The notes: generated by a model not told the origin, from the letters alone. A stretch of DNA of 64,000 bases from an uncultured delta proteobacterium (GCA_963808625.1 CAWEHK010000031.1:1-64000), one strand, 5' to 3'; counted from the first letter of the stretch, positions 5,041 to 63,234 are shown. Numbers and translations: made by a program.

Positions 5041-5445
5041 AAATTCTCCTTAACTAAGTAGGTTAGGTGATAAGGTGAAGTGATAAGAAATCGATTTCTT
5101 GCATTTTCTTGTGTTTTTCCTTTTTCCTAGGTCACGGTTCTCTTACAAATTTGTGTCCATTGCTTCCTCCTCTGTCGATGATCAGGTTGATCGTGAGCGG
5201 AAAACAGTAGTAAACAGGTTACAGAGTGGCTGACATTCAGATTCTCACCAGCCGAGTCAAAGCAAGCTCGATCAGGAGCCCACAACAGGTAGTTATGAAA
5301 AACCTCCCAACGCTAAACACCTAAGTATATTTGGAAGGATAGCAGATATTGAAGATGCCGATACAGGAAAGACAAAAGGAAAGGCTTACTGAGGCAATAC
5401 AGATGAGCTGCCGAAGATGGCTGAGATAAAATGCTCTCATTTTGT

Positions 5446-5520
5446 TAGGCAACCCGGCTATCTTTCCTTAAGATCCGTGGCTTTCCGTCCCCACCTCACG
5501 ATGGGTTTGGCTTTTCTTCA
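5446..5520 (-). promoter_or_regulatory. Cyclic di-GMP-I (GEMM-I) riboswitch
   Basis: The minus strand reads GAAAAGCCAAACCCATCGTGAGGTGGGGACGGAAAGCCACGGATCTTAAGGAAAGATAGCCGGGTTGCC, matching the GEMM-I architecture, about 400 nt upstream of the beta-propeller gene. Confidence 0.88.
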
Positions 5521-12139: not shown

Positions 12140-13150
12140 CTACCAGTGCGAGTGTGCGGGCAAATCACCGTGGGCATGCTCACCCACGCGATGATGTTCC
12201 TCTCCTGAGGCATTCGCCGGATCGATGTGAATCGTGGCATTGGTCAGATAGCGCAGATGATGCAGCAGTTGATGCCTTACCTCCCTGGCTATCTCGTGCC
12301 CCGCTTCAACGGAGAGCTCGGGACTCACCGCGACGTTTACCTCGGCATGCAGCCGATGACCCGACCATCTGACCCTGACTTCCGTCACCCCCTGGACCCC
12401 GGCGGCATGGTTGACGGCGTGCCGGACTTCATCGATCACCTCCGGGTCGACCCCATCGAGGAGGCGGGTAAAAACCGCTTTTCCTGATTCCCAGACGATG
12501 CGGAAAATGGCTGCGGTGATTACAAGACCAACAACAGGATCGGCCAGGGGGTAACCAAGCCGGACGCCGAGGGCGCCGAAAAACACGGCCAGACTGGTGA
12601 GGCCGTCCACCCGCGCGTGGTAGCCGTCGGCAATGAGAGCTGCGCTGCCGATTTCCCTGCCAATCTTGATGCGCAGGATCGCCACCGCCTCGTTGCCGGC
12701 AAAACCGATGACCGACGCCGTCATGACCGCCCATAAATAGCCGACCGGCTGAGGGTTGAACAGGCGAACGAACGATTCGTAGCCGGCAACGACCGCGCTC
12801 GCCAAGATGGTCAAAACAATAACCACCCCTGCCAGGTCTTCCACGCGACCGTAGCCGTAGGGGAAGCGCCTGCTTGGCTGCCACCCCGCCATGGTGAAAG
12901 CAATCCACAGGGGGATGGCCGTGGCCGCATCACCGAAATTGTGAATCGTATCGGCAAGAAGGGCCACGCTTCCTGAAAGCAACACGACGACAACCTGGAA
13001 AAGAGCGGTAGCCAGCAACCCCAGGAGTGACCATTTGATCGCCCAATGGCCTCGCTGGGTTGAGAGCGCAGCCGGATCCAGGGCGCCGTGAGGATGATGA
13101 TGGTGGGCTTGCTCCTGCCTGCCTTTATGCGCATGTGTATGGCCGAACAT
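12140..13150 (-). CDS. Cation diffusion facilitator (CDF) metal efflux transporter
   Basis: His-rich N-terminus; SVALLADTIHNFGD, YGYGRVEDLAG and ALIADGYHARVD motifs. Confidence 0.93.
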   Translation of the reverse strand: MFGHTHAHKGRQEQAHHHHPHGALDPAALSTQRGHWAIKWSLLGLLATALFQVVVVLLSGSVALLADTIHNFGDAATAIPLWIAFTMAGWQPSRRFPYGYGRVEDLAGVVIVLTILASAVVAGYESFVRLFNPQPVGYLWAVMTASVIGFAGNEAVAILRIKIGREIGSAALIADGYHARVDGLTSLAVFFGALGVRLGYPLADPVVGLVITAAIFRIVWESGKAVFTRLLDGVDPEVIDEVRHAVNHAAGVQGVTEVRVRWSGHRLHAEVNVAVSPELSVEAGHEIAREVRHQLLHHLRYLTNATIHIDPANASGEEHHRVGEHAHGDLPAHSHW

Positions 13151-13753
13151 CTTTGCTGGACCTCAACTCAGAAGGCATTCTTAGTGATGCTCCCAGATGG
13201 CGCTTCCAGGCCGCCAATCATCCTTGACGATGCGTCTGCAGCATCAACCGAGCCATGATCTTTCGCTGGAGTAATCCCTGCGAGCTTCTTCGAGAATAGC
13301 ACTTTTCGTGATTTTGGCACTCTGAATTGCGTAAAATTAGGATGGTCAACTCCGGAAGAAACGAGTTATACGCGTTAGGGATCGAAAGTTGCTTTGTTTC
13401 ATCTTTCTGGATGCCCGCCAAAAGCACGCGGGCATGACAATAGGGTGCCTGTTGCTGCTCCGTCAATCCGCAGGCTGACCGGCGGGAATCGAGGAACCTG
13501 TGACACATGCAGGACTTCACCCTTAACGAGTATCGTGTTTTTCCCGAAACGCACCAGCCGCATGAATCAACCCAAGGGGAGGGTTTTAAACCCAACCACC
13601 ATGGCAACGATTCCGACGCGTTTCGGGAGGGGATGAACCCCTCCCCTACGGTCTGGATTTAGCTTTGCAGGTTTCCGGATGGAAACGAGTTTCCGTAGCA
13701 GCGTTACCACGCTTTTGACTGCCTGCGCGGATGGGGAAAGGGAAGAAGAGAGC

Positions 13754-55819: not shown

Positions 55820-57268
55820 CTAGAGGAAGAAGATTAAGGTGACCAGGGCGAATGTCGTGCACAGAATGGGAATAGAATACTTGATCATATACCCGAAGAA
55901 GCTTGGCATCGGTGTTCCCGCTTCCTCAGCAATGGATCTTACCATAAAGTTGGGCGCATTGCCGATGTAGGTGTTGGCTCCCATGAAGACCGCCCCGCAG
56001 GAGATGGCCTTGAGGGTGATGGCGTTTTCGGCAATGAGCTTCGGAACCGCCAGCGACTCGGGCATGCCCGGATAGAACCTTCCGAGCGCAGCACTGAAGA
56101 AGGTCAGATAGGTCGGCGCATTATCCAGAAAGCTTGAAAGGATTCCCGATGCCCAGAAAAAGTGCGCCGGGTCCTTCACCGCCTCGATGACAAAGTCTGC
56201 GGCGCCTTTGGACCCCGCCTTCAGGATGAGGAGACATGGCACCATGCTGATGAATATTCCCGCGAAGAGGTACGCGACTTCCAGCATCGGTGCCCACGTG
56301 AAATCATTGTCCTCCCTGACCTTCCTGGCCGTGGTTACGAGCGAAAGCGTTCCCATGAGGATCAGGATGCCGTCTCGAACCAGATCCACCCATGCACGGT
56401 GCACCCCGAAAAGATTGATCGAAGCCCGATCATACAGACCACTCATCAACACCGCGCCCACAATTCCCGCCAAAAATAGAAAATTGAGCGATCCGTCCAC
56501 TCGCAAAGGTTCCCTGTCTTCTGCCTCGACCGGCGCCGTTACCCCCTCCTTTTTGTACAGATACAGGTCCATGACAAAGTACATACCCAGCACTATCGCT
56601 ACCACTGTCAACATCTGCGGGAGGAGGCTGAAGGTCCACGTGAAGGGGACGCCATGAAGGAACCCCAGAAACAGCGGCGGGTCTCCCAGCGGTGTCAGGG
56701 AGCCGCCGATATTTGCCACCAGGAAGATAAAAAAGACCACCATGAAGCTTCGGTTCTTCCGGTAGTCATTGGCCCGCAGAAACGGCCGTATCATAAGCAT
56801 CGCCGCTCCCGTGGTGCCCATCCACGAGGCCATGGCCGTACCGATGAGGAGCATGAGGCTGTTTACCGCCGGTGTCCCCCTGAGCGTCCCCCGCAGGAGT
56901 ATCCCCCCCGAGACCGTATAGAGCGCCCAGAGGAGAATGATGAACGGCACGTAGTCCGCGAGCATGACGTGATAAAACTCAAAGGACGCCGTCCAACCAT
57001 AGGCTGTCACCATGGGGATGGCGGTAGCCATAGCCCAGAAGGCGGCGACCTTGGCGAAATGGTGGTGCCAGAATTTGGGGGCAAGGAGAGGCAAGAGGGC
57101 AATAGACAGGAGCATCCCCATAAAAGGTACCCCGCTGTAGACCGGGAGCACCTCACCCAGATTGACTCCGCCATGCTCCGGCGCGGGCCCCGAAGCGAGC
57201 GCAAACGACGGCGCTGCTGTGTAACAGAGCAACCCGAACAGAACTGTTAACCATCTTCCACGCATCAT
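55820..57268 (-). CDS. Putative sodium:proton antiporter (IT superfamily)
   Basis: NIGGSLTPLGDPPLFLG, SSFLDNAPTY and GANTYIGNAPN motifs. Confidence 0.88.
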   Translation of the reverse strand: MMRGRWLTVLFGLLCYTAAPSFALASGPAPEHGGVNLGEVLPVYSGVPFMGMLLSIALLPLLAPKFWHHHFAKVAAFWAMATAIPMVTAYGWTASFEFYHVMLADYVPFIILLWALYTVSGGILLRGTLRGTPAVNSLMLLIGTAMASWMGTTGAAMLMIRPFLRANDYRKNRSFMVVFFIFLVANIGGSLTPLGDPPLFLGFLHGVPFTWTFSLLPQMLTVVAIVLGMYFVMDLYLYKKEGVTAPVEAEDREPLRVDGSLNFLFLAGIVGAVLMSGLYDRASINLFGVHRAWVDLVRDGILILMGTLSLVTTARKVREDNDFTWAPMLEVAYLFAGIFISMVPCLLILKAGSKGAADFVIEAVKDPAHFFWASGILSSFLDNAPTYLTFFSAALGRFYPGMPESLAVPKLIAENAITLKAISCGAVFMGANTYIGNAPNFMVRSIAEEAGTPMPSFFGYMIKYSIPILCTTFALVTLIFFL

Positions 57269-57454
57269 GCCTTTCCTCCTTTGTCACTCCCTCATACCAT
57301 CGCACGACATTCTGCGTCATCACAAGTTCTTTCCTGTAACAATTGATTTCCCCAATGGTAACTGCAGTGATACACATGGCGCGTAAGGTGTATAATCGTG
57401 GCCGTGCGCACAAAATCCTGCAAGGCTAACCCTGCAAACAAGGAGAAAAAAGAT
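57257..57454 (+). repeat. 198-bp direct repeat of the antiporter/ald divergent promoter region, copy 1 (copy 2 at 61926-62123)
   Basis: One mismatch seen; ends at the AT of the ald start codon. Confidence 0.95.
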
Positions 57455-57618
57455 TAACCGCTGAAAGCATCTAAGCGGGACCCCCCCAAGATGAGAGTTC
57501 CCCTCTGGAGCGATCCAGGCTGAAGGCCCCTTGAAGACCACAAGGTTGATAGGTCGGGTGTGTAAGGGCAGCAATGTTTTGAGCTAACCGATCCTAATGG
57601 GCCGTGCGGCTTGACCAT
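57455..57618 (+). rRNA. rrl: 3'-terminal fragment (~165 nt) of 23S rRNA
   Basis: taaccgctgaaagcatctaagcggga...ccaagatgag...ggttgataggtcgggtgtgtaag...gagctaaccg...ggcttgacc. Confidence 0.92.
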
Positions 57619-57700
57619 TCTAAAAAAGGCAATTGGTCGAGATCAGGACGCGGACTACGCAAACAAAGAGATCCCTATTCGGTAAGAGCAATCGATTTGA

Positions 57701-57816
57701 GGCGGTGGCGTTAGCGAGGAGGCCACACCCGTTCCCATCCCGAACACGGTCGTTAAGCTCCTCAGCGCCGATGGTACTGCGCGGGCGACTGCGTGGCAGA
57801 GTAGGTCGCCGCCGCC
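57701..57816 (+). rRNA. rrf: 5S rRNA (full length)
   Basis: cacccgttcccatcccgaacacgg, gttaagc, gccgatggtactg and gagtagg motifs, with paired ends. Confidence 0.95.
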
Positions 57817-57828
57817 TCAATCCTTAAT

Positions 57829-57863
57829 GAGCTGGGTGGAAGTTTCCTTCTCCCGGCTTTTTT
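57829..57863 (+). terminator. rrn-type intrinsic terminator
   Basis: gagctggg...cccggctttttt after the 5S gene. Confidence 0.6.
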
Positions 57864-58086
57864 ATTCCCAATCAAAGCACGAACTGTCGCCCTGCGGATT
57901 CAACCTGGATCGGCCAAACCAGTGCCGCTCAGAAGCGCCTCTCTGTTAACCTTTTTGCAACCTTAGCTTTGATATTGAGCGCAGCCACAACCGGGTCCAG
58001 CTCCACTTTGGGGGAGCATGGAGGGCCGATCAATCGGCCCAAGCTCGTAGGACAAGCTTCCCGGCAGCCTCTGCAAAGGGACTTTT

Positions 58087-59322
58087 ATGGCTGCCGTCTC
58101 GCCAGTCTATCACCCAAGAGAGCCAACAGACTCCCCCTTGTGGAGGATACTGCACAACCACTATCCTGATTTCAAGTCCGGCTATGACGAGCATTGCGAG
58201 AAGCAGTACGGGTTCTTCCGGCCGGTTGTGGACGAAGCAGACGGGCTCTTTCGACCCAATGGGACCTTCTATTGTCTCCCCAAGACGGAGCTTGAAGAAC
58301 TGGAAGAGATCTTCCGCTCCAAGGTCCTGGCCATGTTGAAAGCTGAGGCCAGAATAAACGACGGGCTTATTGAAAAATTCATCGCCTGGCATCACAGCGG
58401 TTTCAGCGTGCATGCCGGAAATCAGATAGCCAGAGACGACCGGGACGGTCAGAAGGCCCTGGCGGAATATATTCTGCGAAACGCCTTCTCCGAGCAGAAG
58501 ATTACCTATCTCGAGGATACCGGCAAGGTCCTTTACCGGTCGGCCATGACCCATGGGAGCAACAAGAAAAACTTCGAGGTTTTCTCTGCCGAGGAATTCA
58601 TCGCCGCCATCACTCAGCATATCCCAGACAAGCATTTTCAGATGGTAAGGTACTACGGCTGGTATTCAAGTAGAAGCAGGGGAGAATGAATCAAGGCCGG
58701 GCTCTTCAGGCCGGGGGATGAGCGGGCGTCTTCGGCGGTGAGCCCTGAGGTGACCGTGCTGGATGTGTCTGACCATCGGCCCCGACGGGTGCCGTCCAAG
58801 ACATGGCGAGAGCTCATAAGAAAGATCTGGGAAGTGGACCCTCTCAGTTGTCCCCGATGCGGCCATGAGATGAAGATAATCAGCCGGATTCATGAACCTG
58901 GCGTCATAGAACGCTTCCTTCGCCATCTCGGGTTGTGGAAGCAGCACCCCGACCCTCGGGAGGGAAAAATCAAAACGCCTGCGGACGGGCCGGTTGTCAT
59001 GGAGGATTTCGACGACGGCTGGCCCGGATATGAAGAGCCGGTCTTCGTCTACCACTAAACTCCGCCGCTGGAGAGATCTCCCCCCGGCTACCACAGGAGC
59101 AGTCTGTCCTCAAACCGGGGCAAATACCCTCTTTCAAGCCCTTTGCAAACAAGGAAGCCGGTCGGAAGCTCAATCTGCAGAACTCCCTATCCTGGCGACC
59201 ATCATGGTGAAGCACCATGGTGGTTCTTGTCTTTATGCCCCATGAAATCGGTACAAAAATGTCCTTGACAGAGTCCACGACTTCTGCTGCTCAAAAAACC
59301 TCGAAAAAGCAATTTCCTATCA
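58087..59322 (+). mobile_element. IS91/ISCR-like rolling-circle element, copy 1 (internal deletion and nonsense codon)
   Basis: N-terminus fused in frame to the post-HUH region (RPVVDE/ADGLF); HSGFSVH and VRYYGWYS motifs; TGA at 58687; oriIS-like end gcaatttcctatca. Confidence 0.85.
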
Positions 59323-59324
59323 GT

Positions 59325-59500
59325 CGACCACGATGCCGGGAAAGGAAAGGGAGAGAAAACCCAGGGACTCCAGGATGCCTACCCCTACCGTGCGTACCTT
59401 GACGATCATGTAGGCGACGAAAATGGAGAGCATCGCCCCCGAGAGCCCGAGGATGAGACTATTCTTGACCGACAGGAGCGAAATCAGGTCGTTCAGCCTC
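59325..59500 (-). pseudogene. Internal fragment of an FbpB-like ABC permease
   Basis: KNSLILGLSGAMLSIFVAY...LSLSFPGIVV, cut at the oriIS. Confidence 0.6.
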
Positions 59501-59565
59501 AGGACTCTGGCCAGCACCGCGGATTCATCGGGTAGAACATTACTCACCAGTGCAAAATAATACCG

Positions 59566-59867
59566 TCACAACAAGCGATTGAGCCATTTCTTCGGGTCTC
59601 GTGAGGTATGGAAAATGCCATAAACGGTCACATTCGCACCACAGTATACTCGTAAAAGACAGAGTACGGAAATCGCCTCACTAATGCCCGACGATACTCC
59701 TCATGGATTCTAGCGTGGAGCTCAGGCGTACGACAAATTGCCTGAATACAAGCGTCCACACAGCACAGGAACTCTTCCCCCAAACCGGGGCGACGATCTT
59801 CGTACCAAGAATATGCCTCATCAACGTCCTGTTGCGCTTCCGGCGCGATGATTAGTTCAGCGGCCAT
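59566..59867 (-). CDS. RelE/ParE-family toxin (frameshift near 59635)
   Basis: AYSWYEDRRPGLGEEF and RRFPYSVFY, continuing as IFHTSRDPKKW. Confidence 0.85.
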
Positions 59868-60081
59868 AGCGACTTCGTACCTTGCGTTTTACCTCGATCC
59901 ACGAAAGTCCCGAAGCCGGGTTGTTCATCAAGTTCGCCCTGCGACGAGTCAATTCTTCTTTTTGCCATTCGTATACCGGAACTTCTGAGGGGGTAGCAGC
60001 CAGATCATCCCAAAGATCTTCCACCAGTTGAAGCTTCTCTGGCGGAGTCAGGTCGAATACGGAAACAGTATTTGAATTCAT
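59857..60081 (-). CDS. Addiction-module antitoxin (TIGR02574-like)
   Basis: LTPPEKLQLVEDLWDDL...WQKEELTRR. Confidence 0.85.
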   Translation of the reverse strand: MNSNTVSVFDLTPPEKLQLVEDLWDDLAATPSEVPVYEWQKEELTRRRANLMNNPASGLSWIEVKRKVRSRYGR

Positions 60082-60237
60082 TGGCACCCTCTTGATTGAG
60101 GACAATCCTAAGAATTGGAATGATTGTTTCGATTAAAAACAGATAAATTATATCCTTCTCCCGCCGAATGTAAAGTTCACCTGCGAATGGAACGAGTCTG
60201 GTGCACCTTTCAGCCAACGATCTGCATTCTGGTGAGT

Positions 60238-60600
60238 TTAAAGTCCGATCAGAGAGGCCAGCACTACCAGCGCCGATGAAAAGAAAATCATGATGATGCC
60301 CAGGGCGGAGAGCCTGCCCCACAAGCCGTCCTCGGCAAAGCGCAGGACCTGCACCGCCAGGACCTCCGTCCCGGGACGCGAGAGCACCACCGAAAGGGTG
60401 AGCTCGCGCACGAACATGGTTGCCATGAGGATCCACCCCGACACGATGCCGGGGATGAGCAGCGGGATGACGATGCGGCGCAGGGTGCGGAAGGGGGTCG
60501 CACCGCACACCCGGGAGGATTCCTCGAGCGAGACGTCAAAGGCGCTCATGGCCGGCGCGATGATCAGGTAGGCGATGGGCAGATCGAGCAGCCCCTCGAA
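60238..60600 (-). pseudogene. 3' fragment of an FbpB-like ABC permease
   Basis: EAA-type loop SLEESSRVCGA followed by C-terminal TM helices. Confidence 0.75.
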
Positions 60601-60645
60601 CCAGGATCATTCCAGACAGGGAATAGATATTGAAAAGAGCGCTTC

Positions 60646-61924
60646 ATTCCGATCATGCTCCGCATTTATTTCAAGTACGACCGAAAACTCCTCACCCAAC
60701 TATGCCACTGCGCCAAAGAGAGCCTGGAGATGTTCTTTCGAACCTTGCTGGGCCTCGATGACGGCATCCTCGGGATGATCATGGTCATCCACACCTTCGG
60801 GGATTACGCCAGGTTTCATCCTCATCTTCATGCCATCGTCGCCGACGGGCTGTTTCGAGCGAATGGGACCTTTTATTGCCTGCCCGAAAGAGACATCAAA
60901 GCGCTGGAAGAGATCTTCCGTTCCAAGGTCCTGGCCATGTTGAAGGCTGAGGGCAGGATAGACGACGGGCTTATTGAAAAACTCATGGCCTGGCATCACA
61001 GCGGATTCAGCGTGCATGCCGGAAACCGCATTGCCAGAGACGACCGGGACGGGCAGAACGCCTTGGCGGAATATATCCTGCGAAACGCCTTCTCCGAGCA
61101 GAAGATTACCTATATCGAGGATACCGGCAAGGTCCTTTACCGGTCGGCCATGACCCATGGGAGCAACAAGAAAAACTTCGAGATTTTCACTGCCGAGGAA
61201 TTCATCGCCGCCATCACTCAGCATATCCCAGACAAGCATTTTCAGATGGTAAGGTACTACGGCTGGTATTCAAGTAGAAGCAGGGGAGAAAGAATCAAGG
61301 CCGGGCTCTTCAGGCCGGGGGATGAGCGGGCGTCTTCGGCGGTGAGCCCTGAGGTGACCGTGCTGGATGTGTCCGACCATCGGCCGCGGCGGGTGCCGCC
61401 CAAGACATGGCGAGAGCTCATAAGAAAGATCTGGGAAGTGGACCCTCTCAGTTGTCCCCGATGCGGCCATGAGATGGAGATCATCAACCTGATCATGAAC
61501 CCGACTTCATAGAACGCATCCTCCGCCATCTCGGGTTGTGGAAGCAGCCCCCCGACCCTCGGGAGGGAAAAATCAAAACGCCTGCGGACGGGCCGGTTGT
61601 CATGGAGATTTTCGACGGCGGCTGGCCCGGATATGAAGAGCCTGTCTTCGTCTACCACTAAACTCCGCCGCTGGAGAGATCTCCCCCCGGCTACCACAGG
61701 AGCAGTCTGTCCTCAAACCGGGGCAAATACCCTCTTTCAAGCCCTCTGCAAACAAGGAAGCCGGTCGGAAGCTCAATCTGCAGAACTCCCCATCCTGGCG
61801 ACCATCATGGTGAAGCACCATGGTGGTTCTTGTCTTTATGCCCCATGAAATCGGTACAAAAATGTCCTTGACAGAGTCCACGACTTCTGCTGCTCAAAAA
61901 ACCTCGAAAAGCAATTTCCTATCA
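60646..61924 (+). mobile_element. IS91/ISCR-like rolling-circle element, copy 2 (5' truncated)
   Basis: HTFG...FHPHLHAIV (HUH), YILR, VRYYGWYS and CPRCG motifs; about 1.09 kb shared with copy 1; same oriIS-like end. Confidence 0.88.
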
Positions 61925-62121
61925 GTCCACGCATCATGCCTTTCCTCCTTTGTCACTCCCTCATACCATCGCACGACATTCTGCGTCATCACAAGTTCTT
62001 TCCTGTAACAATTGATTTCCCCAATGGTAACTGCAGTGATACACATGGCGCGTAAGGTGTATAATCGTGGCCGTGCGCACAAAATCCTGCGAGGCTAACC
62101 CTGCAAACAAGGAGAAAAAAG

Positions 62122-63234
62122 ATGATCGTAGGAATCTTGAAGGAAATCAAGGATCAGGAATACCGTGTTTGTATGACTCCCGCGGGAGTGGAGGTGATGA
62201 AATTGAACGGCCACGTCCTTCTGGTCGAAAAGGATGCCGGAGCCGGGAGTGGCTTTGAGGATGAAGCTTACGTGGAGGCGGGCGCCGAGATTGTCGCGAC
62301 GGCCAGGGAAGTGTATGAGAGGTCAGGGATGATCATGCGCGTGAAAGAGCCGCAACCTGTGGAGTACGATTTGATCAAGAAGGAGCAAATCCTCTTCACC
62401 TATCTTCACCTGGCGGCGGATAGAGAGCTGACTGATGCACTCATTAAAACCGGCTCGGTTTGCATCGCCTATGAAACCATTCAGAAGGCGGATGGTTCTT
62501 TGCCTTTGCTGATCCCGATGAGCGAAGTGGCGGGGAGGATGGCCATCCAGCAGGGGGCAAAGTATCTGGAGATGGCGCAGGGAGGCGACGGCGTTCTGCT
62601 GGGGGGAGTTCCGGGAGTCGATCCCGGCATGGTGGTCATCCTTGGCGGCGGCATTGTCGGCACCAACGCGGCGAAGATGGCCTGCGGTCTGGGCGCTAAA
62701 GTCTATGTCCTCGATATGAGCCTCGATCGCCTCCGCTATTTGAGTGATGTTATGCCGGCGAACTGTTTTCTGCTCTTTGCCAGCCCGGCTACCGTCAGGG
62801 AGTTGATCGCGAGAGCTGATGTCGTCGTGGGTGCAGTGCTCGTCCCGGGTACCAAGGCCCCCAAACTGGTCACCCGCGAGATGGTGAAGACCATGAAGAA
62901 AGGCTCGGTGCTGGTTGATGTGGCCATCGATCAGGGCGGATGCTTCGAAACCTCGAAGGCGACCACCCACACCAACCCCACCTTCGTGGTGGATGGCGTG
63001 GTCCACTACTGCGTGGCCAACATGCCGGGTGCGGTTGCCAAGACCTCTACCCATGCTTTGACCAATGCCACCCTGCCCTACGCGGTCCAGATCGCCAACA
63101 AGGGGTGGAAACGGGCCATGAAGGAAAACCCCGAAATCAAACTGGGCGCCAACGTCATCAACGGCAAAATTACCTATAAGGGCGTGGCCGATGCTTTTGG
63201 CCTGGAATTGACTCCGATCGATGAACTCCTCTAA
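62122..63234 (+). CDS. ald: Alanine dehydrogenase
   Basis: [36 protein letters not shown] and [11 protein letters not shown] motifs. Confidence 0.96.

Follow-up and report, generated by a model that had tools for sequence, protein, structure and literature searches.

In the 64,000-nt stretch that we analyzed (contig C31:1-64000, hereafter the window), which belongs to a metagenome bin of an uncultured delta proteobacterium (54 contigs, 4.8 Mb, completeness 84.6%, contamination 4.5%), a 4471-bp insert at 57455-61925 lies between the transporter gene citMHS and the alanine dehydrogenase gene ald. The insert opens with the 3' end of an rRNA (rrn) operon, consisting of a 23S tail, the 23S-5S spacer, a complete 5S gene and a terminator, and closes at the oriIS terminus of an insertion sequence (IS) of the IS91 family, of which it contains two dead copies (Table 1). 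On balance, and with moderate confidence, we interpret the insert as the fossil of a one-ended (read-through) rolling-circle transposition by an IS91-family element.

Table 1. Features of the window at and around the insert, with the basis of each assignment.
Feature	Position	Strand	Basis
CitMHS_2-type transporter gene (citMHS), intact, 482 aa	55820-57268	-	Pfam PF16980, E 1.8e-180, profile 4-448 of 448; list of open reading frames (ORFs)
Direct repeat copy 1 (citMHS-ald intergenic region), joined to citMHS; last letters are the "AT" of the ald start codon	57257-57454		Repeat search, 198 nt, 99%
Sigma-70-like promoter site GTGATA-18-TATAAT, 10/12	57367-57396	+	Consensus scan; consensus match only
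23S rRNA 3' tail, ~164 nt	57455-57618	+	blastn to own 23S (C22:2463-2630), 89%; Rfam RF02541 up to model position 2912
23S-5S spacer, without a ~85-100-nt block seen in this genome's two other copies	57619-57700	+	Alignments
5S rRNA gene, complete, all helices paired	57701-57817	+	Rfam RF00001, 100.7 bits (gathering score 38), model 1-120
rrn-type intrinsic terminator, hairpin and T-run	57829-57865	+	Fold -17.5 kcal/mol, z -2.85; homologous to native rrn terminators of the genus
IS91-family copy 1, dead	57866-59322	+	Pfam Y2_Tnp; tblastn against a 460-aa full-length relative; oriIS end 59312-59322
ABC-permease fragment B, cut by the oriIS end of IS copy 1	59323-59547	-	blastn to permease operons of 3 relatives, 77-83%
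Toxin-antitoxin pair, intact: ParE-type toxin (59628-59867) and Unstab_antitox antitoxin (59857-60105)	59628-60105	-	Pfam PF05016, E 8.3e-5; PF09720, E 5.4e-18
ABC-permease fragment A (BPD_transp_1)	60206-60644	-	Pfam PF00528
IS91-family copy 2, dead	60645-61924	+	Pfam Y2_Tnp, E 3.8e-29; tblastn; oriIS end 61914-61924
Direct repeat copy 2; starts with a 12-nt citMHS stub, ends within the ald ATG	61926-62123		Repeat search
Alanine dehydrogenase gene (ald), intact, 370 aa	62122-63234	+	Pfam AlaDh_PNT_N and AlaDh_PNT_C, both full length

The rRNA portion of the insert retains the whole 3' processing context of an operon. An initial annotation of this DNA had read the ald promoter and ribosome-binding site (RBS) as switching directly into a 23S tail, a spacer, a full 5S gene and a terminator, and blastn, Rfam and folding analyses located every one of these elements. 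The Rfam match to the large-subunit rRNA covers 57382-57605 (72 bits), its first ~70 nt over-extending into the promoter; with only ~164 nt of 23S and no small-subunit match by Rfam within the window, the locus does not hold a complete rrn operon. The window 5S gene outscored the 5S gene of the resident operon on contig C22 (100.7 vs 97.4 bits), with fewer non-canonical pairs and one more canonical helix-I pair. The two genes differ at about six positions overall, and the difference in helix I is a compensated change, A-U against G-C.

The insert is flanked by the two copies of a 198-nt direct repeat, which differ by one mismatch (57422 A vs 62091 G) and share a longest exact stretch of 165 nt. 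Copy 1 is contiguous with the start of citMHS, the first 12 nt of which fall within it, and terminates at ...aaggagaaaaaagAT; copy 2 opens with the same 12 nt of citMHS and leads into the ATG of the intact ald. In the related genome G001, the sequence upstream of citMHS is homologous to the left ~79 nt of the repeat, and the right ~30 nt are homologous to the ald upstream regions of several relatives. Because copy 2 has the citMHS stub and copy 1 has the ald RBS and "AT", a single original citMHS-ald intergenic region has been duplicated. The citMHS-ald adjacency was not found in the relatives G001, G002, G006 and G007, and since the two genes are not neighbors there, no empty site is visible in another species.

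As a result of the duplication, the sigma-70-like site of repeat copy 1 faces the 23S tail and the 5S gene, while the identical site of copy 2 faces ald; the scan found one such site where 0.6 were expected from shuffled sequences. The placement of the 5S gene under the ald promoter, also proposed in the initial annotation, agrees with this consensus match, and a hairpin and terminator scan found no terminator between the copy-1 site and the 5S gene. A transcript from the copy-1 promoter would be predicted to resemble a natural 5S precursor, because the spacer, the 5S gene and the terminator would all be included.

The transposase remnants of the two IS copies matched PF04986 (E 1.7e-17 and 3.8e-29), and the zinc domain was absent from both. 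A 460-aa full-length relative, ~85% identical to the C-terminal part of IS copy 1, contains PF04986 (Y2_Tnp) and PF14319 (Zn_Tnp_IS91), with HPHLH (HUH) at residues 182-186 and YYGWY (YxxxY) at residues 326-330, which we take to be the catalytic motifs. Judged by these domains, the window elements belong to the IS91 family of HUH/Y2 rolling-circle elements. Copy 1 has its left non-coding region, but transposase residues 1-51 are fused to residues 188-460, a deletion that removes the zinc domain and the HPHLH/HUH motif, and the reading frame is also broken by a premature stop at 58687. Copy 2 is 5'-truncated, with ~122 N-terminal residues gone and a frameshift near 61494-61503, and keeps HUH and YxxxY. 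The two copies are 94% identical across 1.1 kb.

The right end of the insert, ...GCAATTTCCTATCA (61911-61924), is the IS oriIS terminus. In an end alignment, seven IS copies from four genomes shared the conserved right end ...AAAGC(A/G)ATTTCCTATCA, and the exact 11-mer of the oriIS end occurs 8 times in the genome vs 2.3 expected. Because the seven copies have unrelated flanks, the sequence that had previously been called oriIS-like is the actual end of the IS, and the insert stops exactly at it. The description of the insert as IS91/ISCR-bounded is correct for this right side; its left side is a plain junction inside 23S. The letters following ...TATCA were GTCC, GTCG, GCTC, GCTG, CCTC (three times), CCTT, CCAA and CCCC. 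IS1294b is reported to use 5'-GTCC, although the strand convention of that report may differ from that of the flanks listed here (PMC13181058).

A second, distant IS91-family group, with 25-31% identity to the window transposase, is also present in the genome as at least six apparently full-length copies on contigs C3, C17, C19, C29, C39 and C45. Their near-identical tblastn statistics suggest a recently active element.

One-ended transposition is described as moving DNA that adjoins the element when termination at terIS fails (PMC13181058, PMC7707992), and for IS91 this failure, with co-mobilization of the adjacent DNA, is put at 1-14% of events (PMC13181058). In the window the rRNA piece lies upstream of the transposase gene and on the same strand, that is, on the terIS side and in the orientation required for read-through. 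GC content did not distinguish the insert (0.546) from its flanks and the genome (0.55-0.56), which we also count in favor of read-through transposition.

Two further rrn-IS junctions were found in the same genome. The resident rrn 3' end occupies C22:1-2939, the contig starting inside 23S and the 5S gene lying at 2776-2892, and a same-orientation, 5'-truncated IS91 fragment (C22:3037-3650) follows 97 nt past the rrn terminator; an IS91 copy downstream of a native rrn operon, which the initial annotation had named as something to look for, is thus present. At C28:74965-75505, a 260-nt internal 23S piece (equivalent to C22 2109-2368, 98%) is fused to an IS fragment of the C22 type (89%). By alignment, this junction is the C22-type rrn-IS arrangement minus 668 nt, elsewhere in the genome. 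The C28 fusion is preceded by a ~70-90-nt repeat that was found on dozens of contigs, for example at C31:41084-41170 and 67652-67744, and that resembles a repetitive extragenic palindromic (REP) sequence or a miniature inverted-repeat transposable element (MITE).

The only close sister of IS copy 1, in the relative G002 (91% in the 5' part), shares sequence with it back to the rrn terminator. Its homology to the window starts at the terminator hairpin, with no 5S upstream, and the local alignment scored 26, compared with 9.5 +/- 1.7 (maximum 18.5) for shuffled sequences. The hairpin of the sister no longer folds well (z -0.13), and an nhmmer screen gave no rRNA match. Because the shared terminator is native to the rrn operons of the genus, the sister appears to derive from an ancestor of the same kind, placed next to an rrn operon, by a capture that took in less of it.

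Position, orientation and the additional junctions bear out the earlier proposal that an rrn 3' end was co-mobilized by read-through; the proposal fits less well with the divergence of the piece from the resident operon and with the death of both IS copies. These two points weigh against our reading, as do the orphan modules with no IS beside them, the undefined terIS, the absence of an rrn association in other genomes, the flanking repeat and the lack of coverage of the junctions, all described below. Over 374 shared alignment columns, the window copy was 94.9% identical to a second orphan on C22, 89.8% to the resident C22 operon and 89.5-89.8% to the operons of G002, whereas two operons within one relative genome were 97.9-100% identical. 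Among 96 genomes of the order, no rRNA tail was closer than 90-92% to the window piece. On these identities the piece was not copied recently from the resident C22 operon, and the comparison with the genome's own rrn that had been suggested to tell self from foreign shows that it is not simply self. Its 5S score and the compensated helix-I pair indicate that the piece was copied from a working rRNA gene, which we count in favor of read-through; the source would be either a different, unsampled lineage or an old paralogue. A 23S sequence only 74-78% identical to the 23S of the genus was observed in another bin of that genus (G005:C57, 3183-5984) and may reflect bin contamination or a very divergent operon.

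Orphan rRNA modules also occur where no IS is visible. Besides the 5S gene of the window, the genome contains two more, one in the C22 operon and one in the second orphan. This orphan (C22:12896-13505) consists of a 260-nt 23S tail (12896-13156), a spacer, a 5S gene (13341-13457, 95.9 bits) and a terminator. The module cuts short a purine-nucleoside-permease gene fragment (12514-12906) and is followed by a PAS-domain gene, with no IS91 remnant adjoining. Across 81 genomes of the family, with partial rRNA matches at contig ends excluded, the sole further mid-contig orphan lies in another genus (G042:C5, 4506-4798, minus strand). It comprises the 3'-terminal 100 nt of 23S, a spacer, a partly decayed 5S gene (83.3 bits) and a terminator, and sits directly after a short ORF, with no IS91 within the 6 kb examined. 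These two loci show that orphans can arise or persist without a visible IS. By tblastx, the sequences flanking both C22 rRNA copies resembled neither the G042:C5 orphan locus nor the ~2.7-kb flanks of the native rrn operons of G001, G002 and G006.

These orphans are among the observations favoring a passive origin, in which a 4.5-kb mosaic entered by host recombination (homology-facilitated illegitimate or unequal sister exchange) with the IS91 remnants already dead cargo. Both IS copies are inactivated, and their 6% divergence makes them older than the flanking repeat, whose copies are 99% identical; no IS end is recognizable at the left junction, which falls in plain 23S; and blastn found no second copy of the permease fragments or the toxin-antitoxin pair in the assembly. 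We nevertheless consider a passive origin unlikely, though it carries some weight, since the right junction coincides to the base with a terminus conserved in seven copies, where chance recombination would rarely fall, and since rrn-IS junctions occur three times in this genome. The inactivation of both copies could also be accommodated by a transposase acting in trans from an unassembled copy.

With respect to the element itself, no intact copy of the window IS subfamily was found in the assembly, which is 84.6% complete, and both window copies are dead. The point at which homology among the IS copies sets in varies with the subfamily, from 130 to 510 nt before the ATG, and no terIS boundary or cleavage motif could be fixed; because the terIS end of the subfamily could not be defined, read-through past terIS is deduced from position alone. 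In other genomes, rRNA was found at none of 40 loci of this transposase clade with Rfam and at none of 77 with nhmmer, a screen that recovered both of its two positive controls and has limited reach outside the family. We therefore dropped the idea that this transposase clade targets rrn operons generally. By these screens, the rrn association is local rather than general.

The flanking repeat presents a separate difficulty. IS91 insertion is described as occurring beside a preferred tetranucleotide, with single-stranded circles with joined ends as the substrate (PMC13181058, PMC7707992, PMC3575428), and as making no target duplication (PMC13181058). The 198-nt duplication is therefore not a product of IS91 transposition itself and needs a second step. 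In agreement with this, a repeat of the right flank within 12 kb leftward was detected by blastn (word size 11) at only one of the eight oriIS ends of the genome, that of this insert. The initial annotation was right that a promoter copy and the intact ald resume after the insert, and left the duplication unexplained. If a tandem duplication of the 198-nt region already existed and the composite inserted precisely between its two copies, the structure would agree with the absence of target duplication reported for IS91 (PMC13181058), and the novel boundary could have offered the target. Such a course is highly improbable in our view, as it needs an insertion that is base-exact on both sides and as the relatives examined have no tandem copy, though none of them has the citMHS-ald adjacency.

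An 11-mer at the left edge of the repeat, ACGCATCATGC (57260-57270 and 61929-61939), was considered as a terIS motif. With one changed end base it resembles …ACGCATCATGCA…, which several other subfamilies of this IS have ~65 nt before the transposase ATG. The 11-mer occurs 5 times in the genome vs 2.3 expected, and three of the five occurrences are unrelated to any IS; we judged it a start-codon-context coincidence, probably due to chance.

Sequencing data from outside the assembly gave little coverage of the junctions. None of the 22 sequencing runs listed contained more than 0.19 of the sampled words, no RNA run was among those containing them, and contigs from runs X1-X4 (90% likeness) were ~80-600 nt long, none of them reaching 57454/57455, 61925/61926 or an empty site. 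The 29-nt left junction and a 22-nt promoter word each had 0 stretches in metagenome scans. This lack of junction-spanning data is compatible with an assembly artefact, in which the chromosome would read citMHS-198-ald and the insert with one 198-nt copy would belong to a separate circle or a co-assembled strain, threaded through the 165-nt exact repeat. The sequence comes from a fragmented, incomplete and slightly contaminated bin, in which an rrn operon cut by a contig end suggests short reads, and the sole mismatch between the repeat copies is near one end, so that it is linked to outgoing edges only. An artefact of this kind appears improbable to us. The contig could not have been built unless both junction sequences physically exist. 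A 4.7-kb circle would lack any replication gene, and a co-assembled strain would itself have to contain both of these junctions; moreover, paired-end repeat resolution normally follows pair links. In an independent sediment metagenome, a 154-nt contig matches 57784-57937 with one mismatch, so the join of the 5S end to the left region of the IS is not confined to this assembly. The sister orphan on C22 (95% identity) also ties the orphan type to this genome.

For read-through transposition, we infer the following order of events. An IS91-family element would have sat just past an rrn terminator, in the same orientation, in an operon of a related unsampled lineage or an old paralogue. Replication from oriIS would have run through the transposase gene, missed terIS and stopped inside 23S. 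The resulting unit would have combined the 23S tail, the 5S gene and the terminator with the IS, and to it IS-mediated shuffling would later have added the permease fragments, the toxin-antitoxin pair and the second IS copy. The composite would then have inserted between citMHS and ald, with ...ct|tccacg as the point to which its oriIS end was joined.

The second step could have taken either of two forms. In the first, the composite would have stood at the ald start, and further read-through from oriIS, ending at ...ct|tccacg, would have produced a circle containing the insert and one 198-nt copy; this circle would have integrated at an intact locus, either through homologous recombination or through cleavage at the same sequence, following the logic of ISCR1 complex integrons. 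In the second, the composite would have inserted at ...ct|tccacg, and an unequal illegitimate exchange with an intact sister would have joined ...aaaaagat to 23S. Either route would leave citMHS and ald whole again, and each of the two would have its own promoter copy. The extra copy of the ald promoter would then stand ahead of a 5S gene that is structurally intact and retains its processing context and terminator. Because both IS copies are dead, the structure is now fixed.

A broader reading is tentative, and we would give it only a small chance of holding as a whole. It would have IS91 elements behind rrn terminators in this lineage repeatedly sampling rrn 3' ends, with at least three products of different lengths; the foreign-type 5S gene under the ald promoter would supply a second 5S rRNA under metabolic rather than growth-rate control, and the 198-nt duplication would record the integration of a circle.

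With its remaining contents, the insert is a mosaic. The permease fragments are permuted, in the order B...A in the window vs A-B in all three relatives examined. The intact toxin-antitoxin pair may help the insert to persist. In a 151-nt contig from a sediment metagenome, run X1, the IS right end is joined to 59356 instead of 59323, without the 33 nt at 59323-59355, a junction variant of a related strain. Elsewhere in the window, a match to the c-di-GMP-I-GGC riboswitch aptamer was found at 5444-5520 on the minus strand (70.9 bits vs a gathering score of 59).

The insert resembles the products of one-ended transposition by IS91, IS801 and IS1294 in the type of transposase (HUH/Y2 with an N-terminal zinc domain), in the dissimilar ends with oriIS downstream of the gene and in the position of the cargo upstream of the transposase gene, where co-mobilized DNA is expected. 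It differs in that the cargo is an rrn 3' end and not resistance or virulence genes, in that the elements are dead and their terIS is undefined, in the flanking 198-nt direct repeat, which those elements do not generate, and in the host, an uncultured Syntrophobacteraceae-type anaerobe. One-ended footprints of IS91 have been documented almost solely for resistance and virulence genes of clinical bacteria; here, an environmental anaerobe carries an unusual cargo together with sibling products. A full-text literature search for IS91 rolling-circle transposition with 5S rRNA found nothing related. IS91 one-ended transposition is known, and what is new is an rrn-tail cargo with an intact 5S gene and an ISCR1-like flanking duplication. 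The insert does not overturn current understanding and is of modest interest.

Eukaryotic Helitrons are rolling-circle HUH/Y2 elements as well, and their read-through yields mosaics of host gene fragments. Unlike them, the window element is a bacterial member of the IS91 family, has no helicase domain and acts on a far smaller scale.

Stand-alone (unlinked or extra) 5S genes are known in bacteria, for example in Leptospira. The window 5S gene is like these in being complete, in having a putative promoter and a terminator and in lying away from 16S and 23S genes. In contrast to them, it keeps a 164-nt 23S stub and the native spacer, is embedded in IS debris and would use the duplicated promoter of a metabolic gene instead of its own. 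The roughly six differing positions make the orphan 5S traceable in RNA and in ribosomes, so that the question of whether captured rRNA genes are used can be approached.

The closest parallel to the flanking duplication is found in complex class 1 integrons, for which a circular product of aberrant rolling-circle replication is described as integrating by homologous recombination (PMC7707992, citing Toleman et al. 2006; PMC3575428). Both there and in the window, an IS91-like block stands between direct copies of a host segment, the 3' conserved segment (3'-CS) in the integrons formed with ISCR1 and the 198-nt intergenic region here; the circle and its recombination we infer by analogy. The window repeat is, however, just 198 nt long, there is neither an integron nor a resistance gene, and the circle is hypothetical; the oriIS end also abuts the right repeat directly, whereas the integrons have a variable region between. 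If the junctions are real, the 198-nt duplication would be a small, clean case for how rolling-circle products integrate without disrupting their target. If circle integration and a metabolically controlled 5S gene both hold true, the locus would be a naturally occurring parallel, outside the resistance setting, to the way complex class 1 integrons form, and would illustrate one way in which unlinked 5S genes come about.

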